A stretch of DNA of 64,000 nucleotides from an uncultured Candidatus Saccharibacteria bacterium (GCA_964628095.1 CAZVLR010000001.1:56777-120776), one strand, 5' to 3'; counted from the first letter of the stretch, positions 10,399 to 23,339 are shown. Notes: generated from the letters alone by a model not told the origin. A program made the numbers and translations.

Positions 10399-11853
10399 AT
10401 GATTTTTGCGAGTTTTGAATTTTTAGTTTTTTTTATTATCGTTCTGGCTTTAAACTGGATATTAAAAATATGGCCGCTCTGGTGGCGGCTTTTTCTACTG
10501 GGCGCCAGCTATTTTTTCTACGCCTTTTGGGATGTTAAATTTCTTCTGGTGTTACTCCTTGTTTCTCTTTTTAATTATTATTGGGCTTTTTTAATAGAAA
10601 AATCGAAAGAGGAAAAAAAGAAAAAGATTGTTTTAGCCGCTTCCATAATCATTAATGTGCTGGTTTTGACGCTTTTTAAGTATTACGGCTTTTTCCGCGA
10701 TTCGGCCGAAGCTCTTTTGAATAAATTCGGCTTTCAGCCCGACTTTTTACTTTTAAACGTGGTCTTGCCCATCGGCCTGTCTTTTTACATTTTAAGGGTA
10801 ATCTCATACAGTATCGACGTTTTCCATAAAAAAATACTGCCGGAAAAATCTTTTATTGATTTTGCGCTGTATGTGGCCTTTTTCCCCCAGCTGCTTTCCG
10901 GCCCGATTGCCCGGGCTAACGATTTCTTACCCCAATTAAAAGCGGGCGGCGCCCAAAAAATAGAAAATCTTGAGCAAAACTTTGTTTTTATCCTAAGCGG
11001 CCTTTTTAAAAAGCTGGTGATCTCAAGCTATTTAACCTTGAATATCGTCAACGATGTTTTTGCCGTACCCCAGAACCATTCGCAGTTAGCCGCGCTTTTG
11101 GCCATGTACGCTTATGCTTTAGTAATTTATTGCGACTTTTCGGGCTATACCGACATTTCCATTGGCGTGGCCGGCTTAATGGGTTTTAAATCCCCTCTCA
11201 ACTTTAACGCCCCTTATTTGGCCCTAGACTTCCAGGATTTTTGGAGAAGATGGCATATTTCATTTTCCAATTGGCTGAGAGACTATGTTTACATTCCTTT
11301 GGGCGGAAACAGAAAGGGAAAAATTAGAACTAATTTAAATTTGCTGGCCACCATGTTCGTAAGCGGCCTGTGGCACGGTTCGGGCTTAAATTTTATTATC
11401 TGGGGACTGCTCCATGGCTTAGGTTTGATTTTAAGCCGCTTTAAAAACGGCTTTTTGGAAAAATCTAAAAATAAAATAAATCTTAAAATTGAAAAGCTGC
11501 TTTCCTGGTTTATTACTTTTAACCTAATCTGTTTTTTCTGGATCTTCTTTGGCAGCCAGAACCTGCAAAACGCCTTTGATATTATAAGGCAAATCTTTAA
11601 CTTTAAAGCCCTGCCCCAGCCCATCGACCTTTATCTAATCTTAATCATTCCTCTTGCCTTTGTAATTTTCGCCCTGGGCAAATACGTTACCAATTCATTT
11701 GTTTATTTGCTAAGCCTGCAAAAGAAATTTCCTTTTTATATTCGCATTATTACCGGCCCCATTTTCTTAGCGTTAATAATAACCTTATTTGCGATTTTAA
11801 TGATAAAGCTGGGCCCGGACATTGTTCCGCCCTTTATCTATTTTAAGTTTTAA
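10399..11853 (+). CDS. MBOAT family membrane-bound O-acyltransferase (AlgI/DltB/PatA-like)
   Basis: Polytopic membrane protein. WRRWHISFSNWLRDYVYIPLGG and the conserved His in SGLWHG are present. Confidence 0.8.
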   Translation: MIFASFEFLVFFIIVLALNWILKIWPLWWRLFLLGASYFFYAFWDVKFLLVLLLVSLFNYYWAFLIEKSKEEKKKKIVLAASIIINVLVLTLFKYYGFFRDSAEALLNKFGFQPDFLLLNVVLPIGLSFYILRVISYSIDVFHKKILPEKSFIDFALYVAFFPQLLSGPIARANDFLPQLKAGGAQKIENLEQNFVFILSGLFKKLVISSYLTLNIVNDVFAVPQNHSQLAALLAMYAYALVIYCDFSGYTDISIGVAGLMGFKSPLNFNAPYLALDFQDFWRRWHISFSNWLRDYVYIPLGGNRKGKIRTNLNLLATMFVSGLWHGSGLNFIIWGLLHGLGLILSRFKNGFLEKSKNKINLKIEKLLSWFITFNLICFFWIFFGSQNLQNAFDIIRQIFNFKALPQPIDLYLILIIPLAFVIFALGKYVTNSFVYLLSLQKKFPFYIRIITGPIFLALIITLFAILMIKLGPDIVPPFIYFKF

Positions 11854-11857
11854 TCCT

Positions 11858-12808
11858 ATGAAAAGCCCCTGGCAAAGCGTCAAAGTAATAATTATTCTGC
11901 TCCTGGTTCTATCTTTTGTGTTTTTTTACGAATCAAAAAGAATCGAAGCTTTTGCCATTAACATGGAAAACGGTGTTTTGCGCTCTTTAGCTTTAAGCCT
12001 AACCTACGCCTCGCAAAACCTTAAATCGGATCTGGGCTTAAACCCCTATTTTGAAGCCGAAGAAAGATTTTGGCAAAGAATAAAAAACTCGCCCAAGATT
12101 TTTAACGCCCAAGCTCCGGTTCAAATAAATAACGAAGTTCCGCTTGTTAATGAAAACATTGAAATTTTACCCCCGTATAATTTTTTGCTGATCGGCGATT
12201 CCTTTATGGCCGAAGCTTTCGGCCCGGCTCTCGAAAAAGAATTAATTCTTTACAAAAACGTTTTGGTATTCCGCAAGGGCGTATATTCTACCGGGCTTTC
12301 CCGGCCTGATTACTTTGATTGGGAAAAAGAAGTTAAAGATTTGATTTTGCAAAAAAAACCGAATTTGGCCGTTGTAATGTTCGGAGCCAACGACGGCCAA
12401 GACATTAGAACCCAGAACATAATAATACGTTACGGCCAGGAAGAATGGAATATAAATTACGGCCAAAAAGTATCTGCTTTTTTAAAAATCTTAAATGATA
12501 ACAATATCTTTGTTTTTTGGATTGGAAATCCGATTGCCAGGAGCAGCTATTATTCCTCAAAAATGGCCAACCTTAACTCAATCTACGAGGCTGAATGCCA
12601 AAAATCGGTTAACTGCCGCTATGTTTCCACCTGGAGCCTGTTAACTGACAGCCAGGGCAAATATTCGGCCTATTTGCCCGACCAAAACAATAAAAACCGC
12701 CTAGCCCGGGCTAACGATGGCATCCACACCACTTCCTTTGGCAGCCAAATTCTGGTAAAAGAAGTAATAAGGAAAATTAAAGAGAAAATCGGTTTGGAAA
12801 AACTATGA
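11858..12808 (+). CDS. SGNH/GDSL-like hydrolase, probable partner of the MBOAT protein
   Basis: N-terminal TM anchor. GDS block LLIGDSFMAE. VVMFGANDGQD is present. DGIHTTSFG (catalytic Asp/His block) is present. Start placed at ATG 11858, just after the MBOAT stop. Confidence 0.6.
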   Translation: MKSPWQSVKVIIILLLVLSFVFFYESKRIEAFAINMENGVLRSLALSLTYASQNLKSDLGLNPYFEAEERFWQRIKNSPKIFNAQAPVQINNEVPLVNENIEILPPYNFLLIGDSFMAEAFGPALEKELILYKNVLVFRKGVYSTGLSRPDYFDWEKEVKDLILQKKPNLAVVMFGANDGQDIRTQNIIIRYGQEEWNINYGQKVSAFLKILNDNNIFVFWIGNPIARSSYYSSKMANLNSIYEAECQKSVNCRYVSTWSLLTDSQGKYSAYLPDQNNKNRLARANDGIHTTSFGSQILVKEVIRKIKEKIGLEKL

Positions 12809-14413: not shown

Positions 14414-14917
14414 TTAAGGCTGTAAAATATCCTCTGTTCGGCCGTTAATAGAAATTATTACTTCCTTTACCGTGGGAAATTGGCTTAAAGTCTGGGCTAT
14501 CTCGGCCCTAATGGCCGAAACCCGGCAGGAACCGCCGACTTGAAACTCTAACTCTTCGTTAAAATCTACTTTGGCCGTTCCGTCTTCAACAGTTAAAGAA
14601 TTAATTTTAACTCCAGAATTAATGCTGGTAAAATAGCCTTGAGCTTTCTCTTTTTCTGTGGGGCCCTTTAAAAGCTCTTGGAGAGAGGCCCGGCCGACAG
14701 CTAAAGTTTTAACAATCCTTCTTTCAACCGGAAAAACTTTATTGCAAGAAGCTTCCGGATCCATCTGGCTATTATTGAAAAAAACTTTAACAGTTAAATA
14801 TTCTTCGGGTATAAAATTATTTTCCGAATCTAGCGGGTTTTTAAGCAAATAAAAAACGAGGCAAAGGATGGCCAGTAAAGATAAAACAATTAAAATAGCT
14901 AAATTGGTATTTTTCAT
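14414..14917 (-). CDS. secreted or lipoprotein-like protein (GerMN/Gmad2-like, tentative)
   Basis: N-terminal signal/TM MKNTNLAILIVLSLLAILCLVF. Length 167 aa. Confidence 0.4.
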   Translation of the reverse strand: MKNTNLAILIVLSLLAILCLVFYLLKNPLDSENNFIPEEYLTVKVFFNNSQMDPEASCNKVFPVERRIVKTLAVGRASLQELLKGPTEKEKAQGYFTSINSGVKINSLTVEDGTAKVDFNEELEFQVGGSCRVSAIRAEIAQTLSQFPTVKEVIISINGRTEDILQP

Positions 14918-14918
14918 G

Positions 14919-15191
14919 TTATTTATTTTTCCAAAAGTCGTCCGCTTCTTTTTCCATCAAATCCAAACGGGTATAGTAATCAGGAAATTCGTTTAAATGA
15001 GCCAAAGTAATCTTTCCGGTAATAAGCGGATCATCGTTGCTCACGTTAGTATGAGCCTCTCTTGTGCCGTGTTCTAACTCCACATCCAAACCCATGCGAA
15101 ACTGTTCGATATCAAACTTTAACCAATCGATTCCTAGCTTCTCCCCTATTTCTTTAGCTTCTTCGCCAGAAAAGTGTTTATTTGAAGTCAT
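14919..15191 (-). CDS. hypothetical protein
   Basis: 90-aa acidic ORF, tightly packed with its neighbours. Confidence 0.4.
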   Translation of the reverse strand: MTSNKHFSGEEAKEIGEKLGIDWLKFDIEQFRMGLDVELEHGTREAHTNVSNDDPLITGKITLAHLNEFPDYYTRLDLMEKEADDFWKNK

Positions 15192-15212: not shown

Positions 15213-15911
15213 TTAAATTGATCTCCTAAAAGTTCCGGCTTTGTAAAGCCATTGGCCAAACTGGCATTCAGAGCTATGCTGGGGCGGTTCGGGCTTCTTT
15301 AACACCGTTACCGCGTCGGTAAATAACTCTAACACGTCTTCGGGATTGGTGTCTATCTCATGCAGCTCTTTTTTAAAGGGCAAACGGTCCTGAAAGCCGT
15401 TTTTCTTATCCACTACGTAAAAGGCCAGATAGCCTTTTCTAGGCGTTTTAAACCCGTTCTTTTCCAATAAATAAGTATAAACATCCATTTGCAGCTGGAA
15501 GCGGTCGTAAACGTTGGGAGCTGAAGATCCCGTTGATTTGTAGTCCAGGGGGGCCAAATCTCCGTTGGCAAACTCCAGCACGTCGTCGACAGCGCCAAAA
15601 AGCGTGGCTTCCAACTGACTGTCATAATGCCGAATGCCTGAAAAATTGCTCCGCCATTGGTTTAAAAGCGATTGATTATGAAAAAGTTTAGCCGGCACTT
15701 GATGCGCGGTTAATAAAGGGTGTGGCTCCCCCGCTGCTCTAAAACTATCAAACTCCTGCTTTAAAAGCACGTCAACGGCCATATTTAAAGCATAGGGAAA
15801 AGGCTGGGGCCGCTTAATGCCCATTTTTTTGTCCAGCCAGAAGCAATGCGGGCATTCTAAGAATAAATTGAGCGAGTTGGGCGATAATTGTATTTTTTGA
15901 GGAAGAGGCAT
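15213..15911 (-). CDS. PD-(D/E)XK-type nuclease (putative)
   Basis: D...D..LDYK (GAVDDVLEFANGDLAPLDYKSTGS) resembles the PD-(D/E)XK core. N-terminal CPHC motif. Confidence 0.4.
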   Translation of the reverse strand: MPLPQKIQLSPNSLNLFLECPHCFWLDKKMGIKRPQPFPYALNMAVDVLLKQEFDSFRAAGEPHPLLTAHQVPAKLFHNQSLLNQWRSNFSGIRHYDSQLEATLFGAVDDVLEFANGDLAPLDYKSTGSSAPNVYDRFQLQMDVYTYLLEKNGFKTPRKGYLAFYVVDKKNGFQDRLPFKKELHEIDTNPEDVLELFTDAVTVLKKPEPPQHSSECQFGQWLYKAGTFRRSI

Positions 15912-16016: not shown

Positions 16017-16181
16017 ATGAAGGAAAAAGTAAAAAGCTTTTTTGGCTGGGTATCTGTATTAATATCTGCGTATGCGGTCATCGGCGGCTGGTCGTTTGTC
16101 GCAATAATTAACGGCGCCGATATTCTGTACATCCCCTTCTGGCACGCCCCCTGGAAACTTCTTCTTTCTCTCTTCTCTTAA
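16017..16181 (+). CDS. small hydrophobic membrane peptide (54 aa), not in the ORF track
   Basis: GGAGG Shine-Dalgarno 7 nt upstream of the ATG. Translation: MKEKVKSFFGWVSVLISAYAVIGGWSFVAIINGADILYIPFWHAPWKLLLSLFS. Preceded by the promoter and followed by the terminator hairpin. Confidence 0.5.
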   Translation: MKEKVKSFFGWVSVLISAYAVIGGWSFVAIINGADILYIPFWHAPWKLLLSLFS

Positions 16182-16473
16182 CTTTTACCCCCCCCAATAA
16201 CAAAAGGCTGTTGAAGCAATTTCAACAGCCTTTCTCTTTTAATGTTTGACTATTGTTAGAGCTTTTTATTCAGCGCCGCCCGGGTTTTGGGCCCCACCGT
16301 CCCCACCGGGCTTATTTTATTAGCCCTTTGGAATTTAATTACCGCCTTCCGGGTTAAAACGCCGTAATACCCGCCAATCTTTCCTGAGTAGAATTTCAAC
16401 TTTTTTAAGAGCTCTTGCAGTTTTTTAACCTCTGGACCCTGGTAGTCGGAATAAAGGTACTTGGTAAATTTAA
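16035..16473. repeat. copy A of a ~390-440 bp duplicated segment (3' end of giant gene + terminator + small-ORF region)
   Basis: Near-identical to 20034..20423, except for a 48-bp in-frame segment present only in copy A (about 16069-16116). Confidence 0.8.
16203..16233. terminator. bidirectional rho-independent terminator (13-bp perfect stem, 5-nt loop)
   Basis: AAAGGCTGTTGAA-gcaat-TTCAACAGCCTTT, T-rich on both sides. It sits between the small + ORF and the stop of the giant - gene. An identical copy is at 20152..20182. Confidence 0.65.
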
Positions 16474-19400
16474 ATGGCGGAGCTGGAATTACGATTTGCC
16501 CTTTATTCTCGCCCATAACAACAAATAGGGTAAGATGATTTACTTGAGCAGATATTTCATTGGTATTGATGTTTAATTGAGAATCTAAAGGGATCCATTG
16601 CTTTGTCTGCTCATTAAAATAGTAGATTTTTAGAGTGCTTTCAATAAAATTTAACACGTCTGATTCCTGATAATGAATATATATGCTTATGGGCTTGGAA
16701 AAGCTGGTAATTTGTTGCCCCCCTGAAACGATTTGGTAGTTAGCAGACAGGCTTGGAACAATATTTAAAGCTTGGGGCAAAGAAGCGCTGTTTGTGATTT
16801 GACTTACTTGGTTTTGGTCTTTTGTTTGAATTTGGAAAGAATAAACACCTGCTAAGGTGTTTGGCTCAATCTGGGCGCTGACAAAGCTTTGGGAATTAAA
16901 ATATGAAGTAACCGTACCTGTTTGGGAAGGAGAAGCACCACCCGAAGCGCCGCCAGAGCCCTGGCTTGCAACGGTAAAAGTTATAATATAATCATTTGTG
17001 TTTGCGTTTGATAAAGAATCCGAGCAACGGACATAAAAGGTATGAGTTGCGGGACCTAGGCTTGTTAATGGTTGGCTGTGTAAGGTTGAGCCTGTGGTTG
17101 AGAATGTGCTGGTCATTAAAGCATAAGTGGTGCTAGCCGTTGTTGAATATCTACAGGTGGCTGCTTCGTCTGTGGCAACAGAAAGGGTTTGTGAGGTGCC
17201 AAAAGAGGATCCGGTGGGAGAGCCGGCTGAAAGGACAGGCGGAATAGAAACATAAAGTTCAAAAGTGGTAGTACTAGACGGAGTATTTGTGCGTGAGAAT
17301 GATAAATCCCCATTAGCATTGGCTGAATATTTTTGACTAAAAGAACTATCGATAAAAAGATCGTAATTAGAGCTGGAAGTTAAATCAGTAAAATTAAGAG
17401 TCAACTGGCTAAAACTTTGGGCTCTAACCTTGCTGTAGCTACTTCCTAATTCATCGGCGTAAACCGTAACCGGCGCCACGTCTGTGCTTGTAGCTTCAAT
17501 TTCTACCGTATTAATTTCGTCAAAATCCATGGCATAATTGGTGGAAACTTGGCTTCTGTTATTATGCAGCTTTTTACCGTAAACCCAAGCATTGTACCAA
17601 TTAGTAGCCATAATCCCACTGCCAGTTGCATTGGTATGCACCCCATCAAGCAATAAACCAGATTCGTCACTAGTATCTAAATCATAATCCCAACCGTCTT
17701 GTATAAAAGTATTCCAGTGGTCGGCAATAACCACATCTTCTTCCAAGGCCATAGTTCTTAATAAATCATTTAAATCGTCTGTAGAATCATAATCTGCCTG
17801 GGTTCTGCTGTTTACGCCCACAACAATGGGAGAAACTAAACCAAGAATTGGAGTAACGCCCATTGACTTTGCGTACTCTACCATTATTCTTAAATTATCC
17901 CGGGCCACTATTTCATTGGCGTCAGTGCCCAAATCATCAGTATCGTTAGTCCCTTCAAGGATAAAAACAGCTTCTGGAGCCGTTTCTAAAATAGAATTAA
18001 CCAAACGCAAGGCTGCGCTGGCAGAGGTTTCTCCACCCTCGCCCCCATCAACCATATCCGTGCTAGTTGCATAATAAGTTTCCAATTTTCCATCCAAGAG
18101 CACCCTGTAAGCTTCGTAGTTATTGCTGGCAACTCCGGCGGTCAAGGAATCGCCAAAAGCTAGAAATTTTTTGCTAACCGGTTTTATAACGGTTATGGTA
18201 GTTGTTCCACTTACGTTGCTGGAGCCATCAGTGGCTGCAATCTCAAAAACATTGGAACCGCTGGCTAAATTTCCGCTATAGCTCCAGGAGGTTGCCCCAG
18301 CCGTATAAGTTACTCCGGAAACAGAATTATTTACTTTTATGGTTTCGGTGCTGGCACTGGTTGTTCCAGACAGCGAGATAGTTGATTCAGTAGAGGAAAA
18401 ATTCTTTCCGACCCCATTACCGCCGTTGGTGGTAATTATCGGCCGGCTAATTGTATTTTCATATTCATACGCTCCGATATCATAAGCGTTGCCCGCACCC
18501 GCATCGGTCCGCAAGTTGCCGGCATAATCATCCGCCACATCCGCAATGGTCGCACCTGCGTCTATCATGGGGCTATCTTTTTGCAAAGTAAAATCGTATG
18601 CAGCTGCATTGGTAAATAGCGGATCAAGGCTCATATTGGTAGTGTCTATGGCTACTCCGTCTGCCTGATGGATATAACTGACATCTGTTGAATTTTGGTA
18701 TAAATTATTATTTTGAAAAATAACATTGCTGGTCCCCGCTAGATATACCCCATCAGCAACCGCCTCATTAAAAACATTATTTTTTATATCAATGTCATCG
18801 GCACTCGTATGTACCTTAAGCCCGTAGTAATTCTGGTAAAAAGTATTATTATAAACGTTTATTCCATTACCCTGTAAAACAAACAGTCCGCTCCTCATTG
18901 ACAAATAGGAGCTTTGAGTCCCATTTTTATAAAAAATATTGTTTAATATATTAAAAGTGCTTTCTGTGCTGTTGATATAAACGCCCGTTCTTTCATTATT
19001 GTTTAAAATGCTTTTTTCAACTTCATTAGTGCCTGTTGCAAAATAAATTCCGTTTTCAACACTATGATGCGAATGACTATTTATTATACTATTACTGCCC
19101 CCGGATACAAAAACACCTGTTATCCCATTGTCGTATATTTCGCAATTTTCAACGACAACGTTACTTCCCTGCAGATAAACGCTGTAAGCCACGGCGTTTC
19201 TTAATTTTAAATCTTTTAATTTTACATAACTTTTTGTGCTTGTAATGTTAACAACATAATTGGCACGATTGACCTCTATGGCATGGTCATCGGGATTAGT
19301 CCCGTCTGCCGTATGCACATATAAAAGATCGTTGGCAGCATCCAAATAATAGGTTGACGCACTCGCTTCAACTAAAGCAATAGAGGAAGTGGAAGTATAT

Positions 19401-19879
19401 CTTGTATAATTATCGTTTTGCCAAGCAAATGAAATGCTGGCAGCTGTTTCCGTCGCTTGATAAGTATTAGTTTTTCCATCGGTTAAAACAAACCCGGTTT
19501 TTAAAGTTCCGGCTGAAAGAATAACTTCTTCTCCGGTATAAGCCTGGTAAGTTATGTATCCTCCCGCTTCGCTTCCAGTATTCGTGAGAGATATTAAACT
19601 TCCTGTACCAGTGCCACTAACATATCTTCCCGCCCGGATATTTACCGTATCTCCTGCGGCTAAATTTGTGTTGGCCTTAGAAATACTGCACCAAGGCGTA
19701 GTAATAACTTGGGCCTGAGTCGTAGTGTAAGAATCGTTACAGGCGCCCCCCACGCTGTCAACGTCAACATAATAGGTTGTTGCTTGGGCAAAAGAAAAAC
19801 TTCCTAAAAATAGGATGGTTAAAAATAAAAAACAACTGAGAATAAAATACTTTCTTATTTTTCTTTTGGTATAAAACAT
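16256..19879 (-). CDS. giant secreted beta-helix protein with internal SGNH-hydrolase domain and C-terminal peptidoglycan-binding (PG_binding_1) domain
   Basis: 1207 aa. N-terminal signal peptide. Many parallel beta-helix repeats (NN.F..N......). SGNH blocks (FLAFGDSLTAG, ILEGTNDTDD, DGVHTNATG). C-terminal YQGPEVKKLQELLKKLKFYSGKIGGYYGVLTRKAVIKFQRANKISPVGTVGPKTRAAL. Confidence 0.8.
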   Translation of the reverse strand: MFYTKRKIRKYFILSCFLFLTILFLGSFSFAQATTYYVDVDSVGGACNDSYTTTQAQVITTPWCSISKANTNLAAGDTVNIRAGRYVSGTGTGSLISLTNTGSEAGGYITYQAYTGEEVILSAGTLKTGFVLTDGKTNTYQATETAASISFAWQNDNYTRYTSTSSIALVEASASTYYLDAANDLLYVHTADGTNPDDHAIEVNRANYVVNITSTKSYVKLKDLKLRNAVAYSVYLQGSNVVVENCEIYDNGITGVFVSGGSNSIINSHSHHSVENGIYFATGTNEVEKSILNNNERTGVYINSTESTFNILNNIFYKNGTQSSYLSMRSGLFVLQGNGINVYNNTFYQNYYGLKVHTSADDIDIKNNVFNEAVADGVYLAGTSNVIFQNNNLYQNSTDVSYIHQADGVAIDTTNMSLDPLFTNAAAYDFTLQKDSPMIDAGATIADVADDYAGNLRTDAGAGNAYDIGAYEYENTISRPIITTNGGNGVGKNFSSTESTISLSGTTSASTETIKVNNSVSGVTYTAGATSWSYSGNLASGSNVFEIAATDGSSNVSGTTTITVIKPVSKKFLAFGDSLTAGVASNNYEAYRVLLDGKLETYYATSTDMVDGGEGGETSASAALRLVNSILETAPEAVFILEGTNDTDDLGTDANEIVARDNLRIMVEYAKSMGVTPILGLVSPIVVGVNSRTQADYDSTDDLNDLLRTMALEEDVVIADHWNTFIQDGWDYDLDTSDESGLLLDGVHTNATGSGIMATNWYNAWVYGKKLHNNRSQVSTNYAMDFDEINTVEIEATSTDVAPVTVYADELGSSYSKVRAQSFSQLTLNFTDLTSSSNYDLFIDSSFSQKYSANANGDLSFSRTNTPSSTTTFELYVSIPPVLSAGSPTGSSFGTSQTLSVATDEAATCRYSTTASTTYALMTSTFSTTGSTLHSQPLTSLGPATHTFYVRCSDSLSNANTNDYIITFTVASQGSGGASGGASPSQTGTVTSYFNSQSFVSAQIEPNTLAGVYSFQIQTKDQNQVSQITNSASLPQALNIVPSLSANYQIVSGGQQITSFSKPISIYIHYQESDVLNFIESTLKIYYFNEQTKQWIPLDSQLNINTNEISAQVNHLTLFVVMGENKGQIVIPAPPFKFTKYLYSDYQGPEVKKLQELLKKLKFYSGKIGGYYGVLTRKAVIKFQRANKISPVGTVGPKTRAALNKKL

Positions 19880-20033
19880 TAATTTTTTACTGACTGGTAC
19901 GGTTTAACAAAAAATAACCGGTCAAAATTCTTTTTAATAATTGTATCATAAAAAATACGTTTCTGCAAAAATTTAATCGGAGAATAATTATTTATTAATT
20001 ATGTTAATATTTAAAAATTTTAATCGTTCTAAT

Positions 20034-20423
20034 CTTTTTTGGCTGGGTATCTGTATTAATATCTGCATATATTCTGTACATCCCCTTCTGGCACGCCCCC
20101 TGGAAACTTCTTCTTTCTCTCTTCTCTTAACTTTTACCCCCCCCAATAACAAAAGGCTGTTGAAGCAATTTCAACAGCCTTTCTCTTTTAATGTTTGACT
20201 ATTGTTAGAGCTTTTTATTCAGCGCCGCCCGGGTTTTGGGCCCCACCGTCCCCACCGGGCTTATTTTATTAGCCCTTTGGAATTTAATTACCGCCTTCCG
20301 GGTTAAAACGCCGTAATACCCGCCAATCTTTCCTGAGTAGAATTTCAACTTTTTTAAGAGCTCTTGCAGTTTTTTAACCTCTGGACCCTGGTAGTCGGAA
20401 TAAAGGTACTTGGTAAATTTAAA
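20034..20423. repeat. copy B of the duplicated segment; small-ORF remnant lacks start codon, RBS and promoter
   Basis: Identical run from the TTTTTTGGCTGGGTATCTG through the terminator hairpin and into the last ~75 codons of the 20205..23339 gene. Confidence 0.8.
20152..20182. terminator. second copy of the 13-bp-stem bidirectional terminator
   Basis: Same hairpin sequence as 16203..16233. Confidence 0.6.
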
Positions 20424-23339
20424 GGCGGACTCGGAAACTATGGCTGTTTTTTTCTCACCCATTAAAGCAAACAGGCTAAGATGATTTACACTGGCAGCAA
20501 CCTTGTTGTTAACCATATCTAAAAAGTTATTCAACAGGGCTTCCCATTTTTTATCTTGCTCATTGTACCAAAAAATCTTAAGCGTCTCTTCTTTGTAGTC
20601 TTGAACTTCTTGATCGGTATATTGAAAAGTAATCGTTAAGGGTTTTGAAAAAGAAGAAACTGCTATACCGTTGGAAGTTATCGAATAATCCGCCACCAGC
20701 TGCGAAACAATCTGAGTATTTGCACTGAGCATTGACGCATTGTTAGTTAACTGCTGAACCTGAGCAGAATCTTTAGGAACAATAGAAACTATAGCAGAAT
20801 TAATATTCTGAGCCGGAATCTCTATCTTGGTGAAACTTTGATTGGTAAAATTATATAAAGTGCTGGTTGGGCCATTAGAAGATACCGTGGTCGAACCATT
20901 GCCTGTTTCTGGCAAAACAATAGGCGGACTAAAGGTGGTTGCTGAGCCACCGCCACTGCAACCGCTGTTATTTTCAAAACTGGTAATGGTGGTAAAATCG
21001 CTCTCGAAAGCATCCCTATTTTTAGCTTTTACCCGAAAATTATAACTGGCTCCATCCCCGCAGCTAAGGCCCGAAGAAATCCAAGAAGTATCCGTTATCC
21101 AGCCAGAATTAGTGCCTTCGGTTATGTTTTCAACGTAATAATAGGTGCCGGCCGGGTTGGAATTGGCCGACCAAGAAACAGTGGCTCCGTGAGAGGCCGA
21201 GTTAGGGGTTACGGTGACGCTAGAGGGCGTATACACCCTCTCGGTAACCTCAAAGGTTTTGATGGAATATCCCCCGTTATAAGTAAAGGTAATTTGGCCG
21301 GAACCGTTGGAGAGATAATTTCCCAAACTAACACTGTCAACCAAAACCGTATAATAAGTATCTGCCCCAAGATCTCCAATCGTATGAACGGAAACAATAC
21401 TTGAGGTAGCACTGGTTTCAATCCATTTTTTATAATAAGTTGAAGAAGTGCTCCAATTTTTAACAGTAATATCCATCCAACTGCTATAATCGGCTAAGGG
21501 CCAGCCCGAGCTTGGAGCAATATTAAAATCAGCAACCGTGCTGGTAGCGCCAGTACCGGTGGCGCTGGTATAACGGAATTTACCATTAGAATATATTCTA
21601 AGAGGCGAAGAAACGTCAAAGTCGTTGGTGCCAGCAGTATACGGAGGCTGATATTCATAAGCGCCAATATCTGGGGTGCCGTAAATAGGGTTGCCGAGAT
21701 AATCAGCGGTTAAGCCCACATTGGTCCCTGCATCAATAGCCGGCGAAGTTGAAAGCAAGCTTAAAGAATTGGTCGAAGTGCTGGTATAATCGGGATCATC
21801 AATAATTGAATTGGTATCGTAGCCCAAAGCCTGCCAAGTCGCTACCAAACCGGCCTGGTGCCCGTCGGCATTTGCAAAAATATAGCCAGTATCTGTTTCT
21901 GAACCGTTCCAAAAAAGATTATAGTTGGAAACGTGATCAGTGCCAAGGTAAAAATCTACTGGGTGGGCTGAGGCATCCGTATATTCGATGGCATTATTTT
22001 TAATCCATGTTTCGTTGGTTGTCCAGCCGGCAACACTACTAGCCCCGTTAATAATTGAACTGCTGGTTCGATTCTGATAAAAAGAATTATTGTAAATAAT
22101 AGCGCTGTCTTGGCCCTTAGCCGCAATTACTACGCCCTGCTGATTAATAAAAATATTATTATAAATTCCGTATTGATGATTTAAATCAAGATTCAGCCCG
22201 GTTGAATCTTGGTCCCTAAGGCCCATGCCAATACCAAGACCGACAACCTTATTCCGATAAAAAGAAGTTGGGCAATCAAACTGGCCAGCATGATTGCTGT
22301 CATTTTCTGCGCCAAGATAACCGGTAAAAGTATTGTCGTAAACAAGAGCCGGAGAAGCCATATTCCAGGCGCCCAGAATAAGCGCTCCGCCGGCGGCAGA
22401 ATATCCGGTAACTGTAAAAGAATTATCGTAAACCGAAGCTGAAGTAACGGTTGGATAAGACGTACCATTAATTGTTATAATACCAGGCCCGTTATTATCT
22501 TTTGTAAAAATATTATCGTAAACTAAAATATTATCCCAATTAAGAGAATTGCATAAACCGCCGGCCCCGGAATTGGTCCAAATGTTATCGTGGATAATAA
22601 GATCAGAACCGGCCAAAACGGTTGTTCGGTAATTGTTATCTTCATATATTAATGGAGCCACAATATTATTAGAAGTATCGTTTATGTTTTTTATTTCCAA
22701 AGAGTTCAAGGCCGCCCTTATTTGAAAAATGCCATTATTGGCAGCTGTTTCAGCCCAATCATTTATCGTTAAATTATCCAATATAATGCTATAATTGGAA
22801 GAAGTCTGTGGAGAATAAAAAAATCTAGTTGTTGTAGCAAAGTCAGTTGAATTGTTTATGGTGCAGTCTTTAAAATTAATCGTGCCTCCGGATCCTGCTT
22901 CAAGGCTGGTAGTAAATACGTGAGTGATTGTCAGTCCGGCTACATCGGCATCAAATAAAATATCTTGAAAAGTAACGGTGTTTGAGCCGATCGAAGATAA
23001 ATCAACCGTAATAGCAATACTTAAACCATTTGAATTAATTTCTGCCCCGGCCCCATAAGCTATCCAAGTGCCGCCGTTTATAGTTACCAAAGAAGCCGGA
23101 CTAAAAGTGCCAGTAATATAAATAGTGTCACCATTGGTTGTTACTGCTCCGTCGGCATCCTCTAATTGATCAAAGGGGGCGGTAGCGCCAGAACACACTG
23201 AAGTGCTACCATCTCCTGGAGTGGCGCAAGTTGAATCAATATAAAATGTTGCCGCCTTGATTCTTTCAAAAGTAAAAAGACAGTTAAAAAATAATGCTAA
23301 TAAAAAAATAATTCTTAAATATTTAAATTTTAACCTCAT
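20205..23339 (-). CDS. giant secreted beta-helix protein with C-terminal peptidoglycan-binding domain (paralog of 16256..19879)
   Basis: 1044 aa. Signal peptide. Beta-helix repeats (NNIFINQ, NNSFYQN, YDN.FT). C-terminal ~75 aa are identical to the paralog. Confidence 0.8.
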   Translation of the reverse strand: MRLKFKYLRIIFLLALFFNCLFTFERIKAATFYIDSTCATPGDGSTSVCSGATAPFDQLEDADGAVTTNGDTIYITGTFSPASLVTINGGTWIAYGAGAEINSNGLSIAITVDLSSIGSNTVTFQDILFDADVAGLTITHVFTTSLEAGSGGTINFKDCTINNSTDFATTTRFFYSPQTSSNYSIILDNLTINDWAETAANNGIFQIRAALNSLEIKNINDTSNNIVAPLIYEDNNYRTTVLAGSDLIIHDNIWTNSGAGGLCNSLNWDNILVYDNIFTKDNNGPGIITINGTSYPTVTSASVYDNSFTVTGYSAAGGALILGAWNMASPALVYDNTFTGYLGAENDSNHAGQFDCPTSFYRNKVVGLGIGMGLRDQDSTGLNLDLNHQYGIYNNIFINQQGVVIAAKGQDSAIIYNNSFYQNRTSSSIINGASSVAGWTTNETWIKNNAIEYTDASAHPVDFYLGTDHVSNYNLFWNGSETDTGYIFANADGHQAGLVATWQALGYDTNSIIDDPDYTSTSTNSLSLLSTSPAIDAGTNVGLTADYLGNPIYGTPDIGAYEYQPPYTAGTNDFDVSSPLRIYSNGKFRYTSATGTGATSTVADFNIAPSSGWPLADYSSWMDITVKNWSTSSTYYKKWIETSATSSIVSVHTIGDLGADTYYTVLVDSVSLGNYLSNGSGQITFTYNGGYSIKTFEVTERVYTPSSVTVTPNSASHGATVSWSANSNPAGTYYYVENITEGTNSGWITDTSWISSGLSCGDGASYNFRVKAKNRDAFESDFTTITSFENNSGCSGGGSATTFSPPIVLPETGNGSTTVSSNGPTSTLYNFTNQSFTKIEIPAQNINSAIVSIVPKDSAQVQQLTNNASMLSANTQIVSQLVADYSITSNGIAVSSFSKPLTITFQYTDQEVQDYKEETLKIFWYNEQDKKWEALLNNFLDMVNNKVAASVNHLSLFALMGEKKTAIVSESAFKFTKYLYSDYQGPEVKKLQELLKKLKFYSGKIGGYYGVLTRKAVIKFQRANKISPVGTVGPKTRAALNKKL

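Follow-up and report, generated by a model that had tools for sequence, protein, structure and literature searches.

We identified, in a window of 64,000 nucleotides from an uncultured Candidatus Saccharibacteria bacterium, a gene for a probably secreted 1207-aa protein that we propose, with about an even chance of being right, to be a peptidoglycan-tethered glycan O-acetylesterase in which a beta-helix serves as a substrate-binding platform. How might such a protein work? After export it would be held non-covalently on peptidoglycan, probably that of the producer's own wall, through its C-terminal PG_binding_1 domain, and a stalk of Ig-like and beta-sandwich domains would display at its end the beta-helix along with an SGNH hydrolase whose catalytic residues are intact. 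There, a triad of Ser578, His748 and Asp745, with an oxyanion hole formed by Gly616 and Asn645, would strip a polysaccharide of its O-acetyl (or other short acyl) groups. The beta-helix and its conserved inserted subdomain would form an extended glycan-binding platform and deliver the polymer to the esterase; the helix would not be a PL9 lyase of the known kind, and binding is a more probable role for it than catalysis. The features of the gene and its surroundings are listed in Table 1.

Table 1. Features of the gene, its product and its surroundings (positions in the window; aa, residues of the 1207-aa protein)
Feature	Position	Strand	Basis
Whole gene, 1207-aa secreted multidomain protein	16256..19879	(-)	ORF list and assembly copies
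Signal peptide, aa 1-32	19784..19879	(-)	Read from translation
Right-handed parallel beta-helix, aa 33-476, PL9/DUF1565-like	18452..19783	(-)	Pfam, AF2, Foldseek, family profile
Helix insertion after first rungs, aa ~126-204	19268..19504	(-)	Low pLDDT and homolog conservation
C-terminal helix cap, aa 417-474, choice-of-anchor Q	18458..18631	(-)	NCBIfam NF041518
Ig-like spacer domain, aa ~479-565	18185..18445	(-)	Recurrent best stretch in exhaustive search
SGNH esterase domain, aa 574-753	17621..18160	(-)	Pfam, motifs, alignment, PDB matches, Foldseek
Beta-sandwich module after SGNH, aa ~766-878	17246..17584	(-)	Alignment, BLASTP, low-confidence beta-strand prediction
Second Ig-like repeat domain, aa ~879-974	16958..17245	(-)	Exhaustive search, sub-threshold Pfam Y_Y_Y
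Uncharacterised module, aa ~990-1130, ends ...NHLTLF	16490..16912	(-)	phmmer against fetched proteins
PG_binding_1 domain, aa 1147-1203	16271..16441	(-)	Pfam, PDB matches, PHROG
Terminator-like hairpin, 14-bp stem	16203..16233	(-)	23 nt past stop codon
Upstream partial paralog, 1044 aa	20205..23339	(-)	ORF list, Pfam, NCBIfam, BLASTP

The reading frame given in the initial annotation was recovered exactly, and so were the motifs quoted there: NNIFYKNGT, NNTFYQN, NNNLYQN and the C-terminal PG-binding string, together with the SGNH motifs GDSL (aa 576), GTND (aa 643) and DGVH (aa 745). Because the same protein is found full-length on four contigs from NCBI, JGI and ENA assemblies, an assembly chimera is unlikely. 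The samples behind the gene are groundwater metagenomes, and it is surrounded by the housekeeping genes of a cellular genome. In a Pfam search, the three models named earlier, Beta_helix, Lipase_GDSL_2 and PG_binding_1, each gave a match above the gathering cut-off. Their union in one protein is real; it is rare among relatives, and every part of the protein is an already known module. Secretion, also claimed at the outset, agrees with a signal peptide readable in the translation, which has a basic N-region (MFYTKRKIRKY), a hydrophobic core and an AQA cleavage-type motif, and we infer from these residues that the protein is exported by the Sec route.

In the esterase domain, Lipase_GDSL_2 matches over 175 of its 178 profile positions (1-175; E 2.7e-18, 67.5 bits against a cut-off of 32.9), and alignment with homologs shows that none of blocks I, II, III and V has been lost: GDS with Ser578, GGEGGETS with Gly616, GTND with Asn645, and DGVH with Asp745 and His748. 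We take the spacing of these five residues to resemble that of E. coli TesA. The SGNH segment of the AF2 model has a pLDDT of 73-91 and the alpha/beta/alpha SGNH fold; in Foldseek it matches the acetyl xylan esterases AlAXEase and Axe2, Bacteroides GDSL proteins and TesA at a TMt of 0.7-0.8, and the PDB sequence matches of this part are GDSL/SGNH esterases. The mid-protein SGNH module of the initial annotation is thus borne out by profile, catalytic set and fold. In SGNH-fold O-acetyltransferases such as OatA and PatB, the block II Gly is replaced by Ser or Asn, and most hydrolases keep it (PMC12148441). Gly616 is retained in the protein and aligned with the block II Gly of its homologs, and the domain is, judged on its residues, more probably an esterase than a transferase, so that a de-O-acetylating function, as first suggested, is a reasonable prediction. 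The fold comparison does not separate carbohydrate esterases from TesA thioesterases/lysophospholipases or PatB; we consider a carbohydrate substrate more probable than a lipid.

The beta-helix had been thought to fill the N-terminal two-thirds of the protein; it exists, but it occupies only aa ~33-476, about 37% of the length. This stretch takes in an N-terminal 'TYYVD...GDTV' start and asparagine-ladder rungs, and Pfam Beta_helix matches aa 210-370 (E 1.5e-19, 70.7 bits against a cut-off of 25.9). The AF2 model (pLDDT 79.9, pTM 0.82) has as its top Foldseek match the PL9 enzyme Pel9A (1ru4; E 1.3e-9, TM 0.58/0.64), to which a family profile of the helix aligns over its full length (E 1.3e-33), and this agrees with the earlier assignment to the fold class of polysaccharide lyases and hydrolases. 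The cap (NF041518; E 5.2e-9, 36.2 bits against a cut-off of 25), with the motif DPLF...DF.LQ..SP.IDAG...YDIGAYEY, aligns with the C-terminal end of Pel9A. Among 59 helix family members, the N-terminal start, the Asn-ladder rungs and the cap hold the invariant or near-invariant positions. Where the insertion follows the first rungs, pLDDT falls below 50 (model residues 94-172), yet no other stretch is as well conserved in the three closest homologs, as seen in P0032 and P0121. A scan of contigs of GTDB species representatives, in which the source genome is absent, found only beta-helix proteins of 24-25% identity.

Does the helix itself cut glycans? Pectin- and xylan-degrading systems combine backbone-cleaving enzymes with acetylesterases, and the protein could likewise be a bifunctional depolymerase-esterase, in which the helix cleaves through a non-canonical site that includes the insertion and the SGNH domain strips blocking acetyl groups. 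This reading, which we regard as unlikely, draws on the nearest structures being true enzymes, since Foldseek and the profile place the helix closest to polysaccharide-active helices (Pel9A of PL9, the GH136 lacto-N-biosidases, XylC of GH120, PL6/PL31 lyases and AlgE), and on the retention of His271-His272 and several acidic residues among the closest homologs. Catalysis by Pel9A depends on the Ca2+ ligands Asp209, Asp233 and Asp237 and the base Lys273 (PMC10992409). In an HMM alignment, which is not a superposition of coordinates and in which one-rung register shifts are possible for the PL9 and GH120 residues alike, these positions are Ser259, Glu275, Tyr279 and Tyr301 in our protein and Ala, Arg, Arg and Val in its closest homolog, P0032. 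Membership of the PL9 pectate lyases is thus rejected; the homology to the Pel9A helix holds, and the catalytic residues are not conserved. XylC has Asp382 as nucleophile and Glu405 as acid/base (PMC3507262). Read by eye across two profile alignments of moderate quality in this region, the Asp382 position is Asn303 in our protein, Asp in P0032 and Val in P0121, and Glu405 falls in a XylC-specific insertion and has no counterpart, so that GH120 beta-xylosidase membership is rejected as well. Moreover, the near-invariant acidic residues of the 59 family members are all confined to the cap. Because neither catalytic set is conserved, the 'glycan-degrading' part of the initial annotation, which had proposed a search for lyase residues, is unsupported for the helix. 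On the other side, a beta-sandwich domain of XylC (residues 76-200), inserted after the first rungs, helps to form its active site (PMC3507262) and is essential for activity, and the ~80-aa insertion of our protein lies at the same topological place. Because this insertion is both the most conserved stretch and so placed, the helix may still be catalytic through unrecognised residues.

After the SGNH domain, three further beta-sandwich modules lead to the anchor. PG_binding_1 is a genuine C-terminal domain, as had been claimed, matched over 57/57 profile positions (E 1.9e-14, 54 bits against a cut-off of 23); its PDB sequence matches are the PG-binding domains of 4lpq and CtpB. Its PHROG matches are endolysin wall-binding regions. 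These cover the PG-binding end only, and a phage origin of the gene was rejected. Outside the SGNH domain, AF2 models aa 476-1207 poorly (pLDDT 56), such that the spacer modules and the domain arrangement cannot be described from it. In the exhaustive phmmer search, the commonest best stretch was query 846-942, the second Ig-like repeat, which has a weak, sub-threshold Y_Y_Y match; query 447-533, the first Ig-like repeat, is abundant in giant surface proteins with Big_13/Glucodextran_B-type matches. These two repeats dominate the best 150 of the 12,612 matches, and the search is no census of the architecture. A profile of aa 990-1130 had no match in Pfam or the PDB; phmmer finds this module in the paralog and in proteins with other enzyme heads. 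The paralog has a beta-helix-like head and a choice-of-anchor Q cap; it shares the C-terminal modules, its PG_binding_1 end is identical to ours, and an identical copy of the hairpin follows it (20152-20182). The initial annotation had called it a paralog lacking the SGNH module; the lack is confirmed by Pfam, and the paralogy is clear over the C-terminal ~400 aa (43% identity), the last helix rungs and the cap, but not elsewhere. An ECF-type sigma factor/DUF5667 pair adjoins the gene; because it is absent beside both the Moranbacteria homolog described below and the relatives sharing the C-terminal cassette, we regard it as a local association only.

Among the matches listed, the sole relative with the helix-Ig-SGNH core is encoded in a Candidatus Moranbacteria MAG, its gene being divided between two contigs; there, the core, together with the following beta-sandwich (P0039 alignment; BLASTP finds this module in the paralog also), is conserved at 43-46% identity. 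This conservation suggests that the helix and esterase work as a unit, and because the homolog has a different tail without PG_binding_1, wall tethering would not be obligatory for that unit. When the whole protein was queried in a word-indexed homolog search, all matches other than the protein itself were local and fell in the Ig and PG-binding regions, and scans of metagenome contigs and of IMG/VR viral contigs with an alignment of the SGNH core gave no match. In other proteins, the C-terminal modules stand behind S8 protease and BD-FAE (alpha/beta) esterase heads, and this recurrence marks our protein as one shuffle in a modular exoenzyme family.

Could the substrate be the producer's own envelope? 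The protein might be a functional analog of Ape1, positioned on its substrate by PG_binding_1 and controlling wall turnover by removing the O-acetyls that a nearby MBOAT-SGNH pair would put on peptidoglycan or a secondary wall polymer. A PG-binding domain is indeed fused to an esterase here, and an MBOAT gene (10399..11853) and a DUF459/SGNH gene (11822..12808) lie ~4 kb away, the MBOAT ending in ...FIYFKF, which resembles the acyl-shuttle tyrosine motif FIYANF of PatA. We nevertheless hold this to be distinctly unlikely. The genes patA, patB and ape1 make up a single operon in Gram-negative bacteria (PMC12148441), whereas our gene lies on the opposite strand from the MBOAT pair with six ORFs between and shares no operon with it; alginate, cellulose and secondary wall polymers are further targets of acetylation by MBOAT-SGNH pairs (PMC12148441); no solved Ape1 structure is among the PDB sequence matches or the top 50 fold matches; Ape1 has no counterpart of the 440-aa beta-helix; and the Moranbacteria homolog lacks the PG-binding domain. 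Membership of the Ape1 family itself was rejected on the same lack of specific similarity and of patA/patB linkage.

It is very unlikely, in our estimate, that the protein is mainly a structural surface protein or adhesin, whose helix and Ig-like modules attach to a partner cell or matrix and whose SGNH domain is accessory or acts on lipids, like the lysophospholipase and thioesterase members of the fold. Both Ig-like repeat types fill giant surface proteins of up to 4900 aa, the choice-of-anchor cap is typical of surface proteins, and TesA-type enzymes score equal to carbohydrate esterases in the fold search. Against this, the two known members, although just ~44% identical overall, both retain the full SGNH catalytic set, which argues that SGNH activity is under selection, and the protease and esterase heads on the C-terminal cassette fit a family for enzyme display. 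We think it equally improbable that the protein and its SGNH-less neighbour serve an episymbiotic candidate phyla radiation (CPR) bacterium for docking or as a weapon used on contact, anchored on the symbiont's own wall and perhaps activated by the neighbouring sigma factor pair. A tailspike-like helix would then grip a host capsule or wall polymer, and the SGNH domain would remove its O-acetyls and expose the host surface; if true, this would give the deacetylating tailspikes of phages a cellular equivalent.

CPR bacteria have very small genomes, and a life attached to other cells is presumed for them; to our knowledge, almost all of their surface-exposed enzymes are uncharacterised. The gene offers a clean, testable example, with a predicted esterase that has all catalytic residues, a predicted wall anchor, and a helix of the polysaccharide-enzyme fold class from which the known catalytic sets are missing, and it indicates that related genomes use one type of C-terminal stalk for different hydrolase heads. 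The identity of the substrate would show which acetylated polymer matters at the surface of this organism, be it a polymer of its own, as the nearby polymer-acetylating MBOAT-SGNH pair might suggest, or one of a partner; without it, the protein is a plausible but ordinary outcome of domain shuffling.

The proposed tethered esterase resembles several known systems in part. Phage receptor-binding fibres and spikes recognise polysaccharide, and their SGNH domains deacetylate surface glycans (PMC11058221); these receptor-binding proteins, which have pectin-lyase-like beta-helix or SGNH deacetylase domains (e.g., gp41 of Acinetobacter phage Aristophanes), follow the same logic, and phage 'right handed beta helix' proteins are also among the matches of our helix model. 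In contrast to these, the gene has a cellular housekeeping context and no SGNH-core relatives in IMG/VR. With Ape1 and PatA-PatB it shares an SGNH esterase tied to peptidoglycan and a PatA-like MBOAT with an SGNH partner nearby, but the domain architecture is entirely different. The small SGNH carbohydrate acetylesterases AlAXEase (7ddy) and Geobacillus Axe2 (3w7v), and enzymes of the TesA/TAP type, share with our domain a compact SGNH fold of ~190 aa and its blocks I, II, III and V, at 20-26% identity, from which the substrate is not transferable; they are single-domain enzymes, whereas our SGNH domain follows an Ig-like module and precedes a beta-sandwich in a wall-anchored protein. XylC (3vst) and the GH136 lacto-N-biosidases share the beta-helix class; the N-terminal segment of XylC is very similar (family profile 25-100 against XylC 2-79), and both proteins carry an insertion after the first rungs, ours being the shorter. 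Finally, Pel9A of Dickeya dadantii (Erwinia chrysanthemi) is the best solved-structure match for aa 33-480, aligned end to end with the N-terminal start and C-terminal cap included; at 16% identity, our protein has not kept its Ca2+ ligands and Lys273, and adds to this common helix the insertion and ~730 residues of other domains.

How is this protein built? The gene lies where the initial annotation had placed it, at 16256 to 19879 on the minus strand, begins with ATG and encodes 1207 aa, and each of the motifs quoted in that annotation was found in it. The three Pfam domains proposed there all exceeded their curated cut-offs: Beta_helix (aa 210-370, E 1.5e-19), Lipase_GDSL_2 (E 2.7e-18) and PG_binding_1 (57 of 57 profile positions, E 1.9e-14). 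The helix, which had been taken for the N-terminal two-thirds, in fact accounts for about 37% of the protein. Because an identical full-length protein is encoded on four contigs of public assemblies (NCBI, 170 kb; JGI, 59 kb; two from ENA), an assembly artefact is an improbable explanation for this architecture. A terminator-like hairpin of 14 bp is located 3′ of the stop codon.

Features of the protein (aa) and of neighbouring genes (nucleotide positions in the window)
Feature	Position	Strand	Remarks
Signal peptide	aa 1-32		basic N-region, hydrophobic core, AQA directly before 'TTYYVD'; assigned by reading the sequence
Right-handed beta-helix	aa 33-476		AF2 with 59-sequence alignment, pLDDT 79.9, pTM 0.82
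Helix insertion	aa 126-204 (19268-19504)	-	after first rungs
Helix cap, choice-of-anchor Q domain (NCBIfam)	aa 417-474		aligns to Pel9A C-terminus
Ig-like domain	aa ~479-565
SGNH domain (Lipase_GDSL_2)	aa 574-753
Beta-sandwich	aa ~766-878
Second Ig-like domain	aa ~879-974
Ser/Gly linker			between second Ig-like domain and following module
Uncharacterised module	aa ~990-1130 (16490-16912)	-	C-terminal end ...LKIYYFNE...W......NHLTLF
PG_binding_1	aa 1147-1203
MBOAT acyltransferase	10399..11853	+	C-terminal end ...PPFIYFKF
DUF459/SGNH protein	11822..12808	+	overlaps MBOAT gene
DUF5667 coiled-coil membrane protein, 399 aa	23501..24700	-	17-nt overlap with sigma factor gene
ECF-type sigma factor, 177 aa	24684..25217	-	upstream of both large genes

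The SGNH module does sit in mid-protein and carries all four conserved blocks: GDS (Ser578), GGEGG(616)ETS, GTN(645)D and D(745)GVH(748). The solved structures matched by sequence are GDSL/SGNH esterases (best E 6.6e-7). In an otherwise poor model (pLDDT 56 overall, compared with 73-91 here), this part matches the acetyl xylan esterases AlAXEase and Axe2, Bacteroides GDSL proteins and TesA (TMt 0.7-0.8). In the O-acetyltransferases OatA and PatB, the block II Gly is replaced by Ser or Asn (PMC12148441); because this Gly is retained, we read the domain as a putative hydrolase. Judged by entry description, neither Ape1 nor rhamnogalacturonan acetylesterase was among the matches listed for the domain, and thus no specific substrate can be transferred. 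A membership test placed the protein outside Ape1, and that assignment was rejected. The likeliest reading, held with moderate confidence, is that of a secreted glycan O-acetylesterase that would be tethered to peptidoglycan and whose helix would bind the polymer.

Might the helix itself be catalytic? Of the solved structures, Pel9A, a PL9 pectate lyase (1ru4; Foldseek E 1.3e-9, TM 0.58/0.64), comes closest to it, followed by GH136 lacto-N-biosidases, GH120 XylC, PL9, PL6 and PL31 lyases and AlgE epimerases, and the helix-family profile spans the whole length of Pel9A (E 1.3e-33). Polysaccharide lyase catalytic residues were sought, as the initial annotation had proposed, and the PL9 set is not kept. 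The Ca2+ ligands (Asp209, Asp233 and Asp237) and Lys273 of Pel9A, at indices 184, 208, 212 and 248 of the PDB chain, align by hmmalign with Ser259, Glu275, Tyr279 and Tyr301, and with Ala, Arg, Arg and Val in the closest homolog, so that these positions vary even within the close family. The XylC nucleophile Asp382 aligns with Asn303 here, with Asp in the Moranbacteria homolog fragment P0032 and with Val in the homolog P0121, and XylC Glu405 falls within an insertion specific to XylC. Therefore, these known catalytic machineries are absent from the helix, and membership of PL9 and of GH120 was rejected on these grounds. In the 59-member alignment, invariant or near-invariant positions are found in the N-terminal start, the Asn-ladder rungs and the cap, and near-invariant acidic residues in the cap only.

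A bifunctional depolymerase and esterase is nevertheless the strongest of the alternatives, if an unlikely one. The insertion at aa 126-204, the sole part of the helix model without a confident fold (AF2 pLDDT below 50), is the most conserved stretch across the three closest homologs, with the pattern KTGF..T.G.TYTYQ.AETA...YT.YTS.TS...VEAS.S.YY.D...LY.HT.DG..P..H.IE. It occupies the same topological place as the beta-sandwich of XylC, which is essential for activity (PMC3507262), and an unrecognised catalytic site involving it is possible.

The neighbourhood bears on a further alternative, in which the protein would remove O-acetyl groups from the organism's own wall in the manner of Ape1, coupled to a nearby MBOAT-SGNH pair; we regard this as less probable still, Ape1 itself being missing from the matches listed. 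The MBOAT and DUF459/SGNH genes lie 4 kb away on the opposite strand. Such pairs O-acylate envelope polymers, with the C-terminal Tyr motif of PatA, FIYANF, acting as an acyl shuttle (PMC12148441). The MBOAT end FIYFKF resembles this motif, and the two genes make up a complete MBOAT-SGNH pair for polymer O-acylation; the organism therefore probably acetylates a polymer of its own, which is one candidate substrate. That the protein is chiefly an adhesin, or a lipid esterase, is the least probable reading, with the choice-of-anchor cap and the TesA matches on its side and the complete SGNH blocks, kept in the Moranbacteria homolog as well, against it.

On the minus strand, the sigma factor and DUF5667 genes, which may form a sigma/anti-sigma control pair, precede the two large genes, each of which has its own terminator; this arrangement was not found beside the Moranbacteria homolog or the relatives sharing the C-terminal cassette. 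Directly downstream lie a Germane (GerM-type) protein of 167 aa and an adjoining DUF5661 protein of 90 aa (14414-15191, minus strand), and in the same group a PD-(D/E)XK nuclease-fold protein (15213..15911). The locus is flanked by housekeeping genes (EF-P, DnaX, DnaB, CysS, Mur ligase), has a GC content of about 40% and recurs across groundwater metagenomes. The nearest homolog and the gene content suggest that the organism belongs to the candidate phyla radiation.

The paralog (20205..23339, minus strand, 1044 aa) is 43% identical to the SGNH protein over the C-terminal ~400 aa and also shares the last helix rungs and cap with it (hhalign probability 99.4%); as had been stated, Pfam gives it no SGNH module. 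A stretch of ~415 nt is duplicated in the window (16034-16419 and 20031-20368). Within it, 300 nt are 100% identical (16120-16419 and 20069-20368); in both genes this exact repeat takes in the last ~55-64 codons (PG_binding_1) with the stop codon and terminator hairpin, and continues for ~135 nt beyond. A 48-nt indel and then ~38 nt that are 95% identical come next. Recent duplication or gene conversion is the suggested origin, and the stretch is the probable cause of the breaks that several metagenome assemblies show at this point. The stretch downstream of the SGNH gene also contains a small convergent ORF (~16017-16181, plus strand) for a hydrophobic peptide of 54 aa, annotated as a gene on the JGI contig (L001 13698..13862); the paralog-side copy lacks the start codon and 16 codons.

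Two Ig-like repeat types dominated the exhaustive homolog search. Neither an SGNH nor a PG-binding domain is present in any of the 82 helix homologs, and the helix is missing from all nine SGNH homologs, most of which combine HYR with SGNH. P0032 (479 aa, 46% identity) matches the helix, and P0039 (726 aa, 43% identity) the Ig, SGNH and sandwich domains; both come from one assembly labelled Candidatus Moranbacteria (GCA_026396205.1), P0032 at the end of its contig and P0039 at the start of a second, with the junction inside the Ig domain. They are almost certainly a single gene split over two contigs. This gene has the same helix-Ig-SGNH-sandwich core and keeps every SGNH block, but its tail differs, with CHB_HEX_C_1/Fn3_assoc and a Lys/Tyr-rich end in place of PG_binding_1. 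A short reverse-transcriptase (RVT_1) fragment (L006 586-1131) is located near the start of the contig bearing its N-terminal half. The C-terminal modules also occur behind other heads: a beta-helix-like region with a BD-FAE alpha/beta esterase in P0055, and S8 subtilases in P0112 and P0150. The ~140-aa module without a match in Pfam or PDB is common to such proteins and to both large genes, and is a candidate new family of stalk or anchor domains. The picture is of a modular family of displayed exoenzymes, with heads and anchors shuffled, of which this protein is one rare combination.

Every domain of the protein belongs to a known superfamily, and nothing in it is mechanistically unexpected. 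When viral contigs were scanned with the SGNH-core alignment, no phage relatives were found, and PHROG matches were confined to the PG-binding end. The architecture is real and rare, its core is conserved in two genomes, and in function it would resemble, by analogy, phage receptor-binding proteins that join surface-glycan recognition to an SGNH deacetylase domain (PMC11058221).
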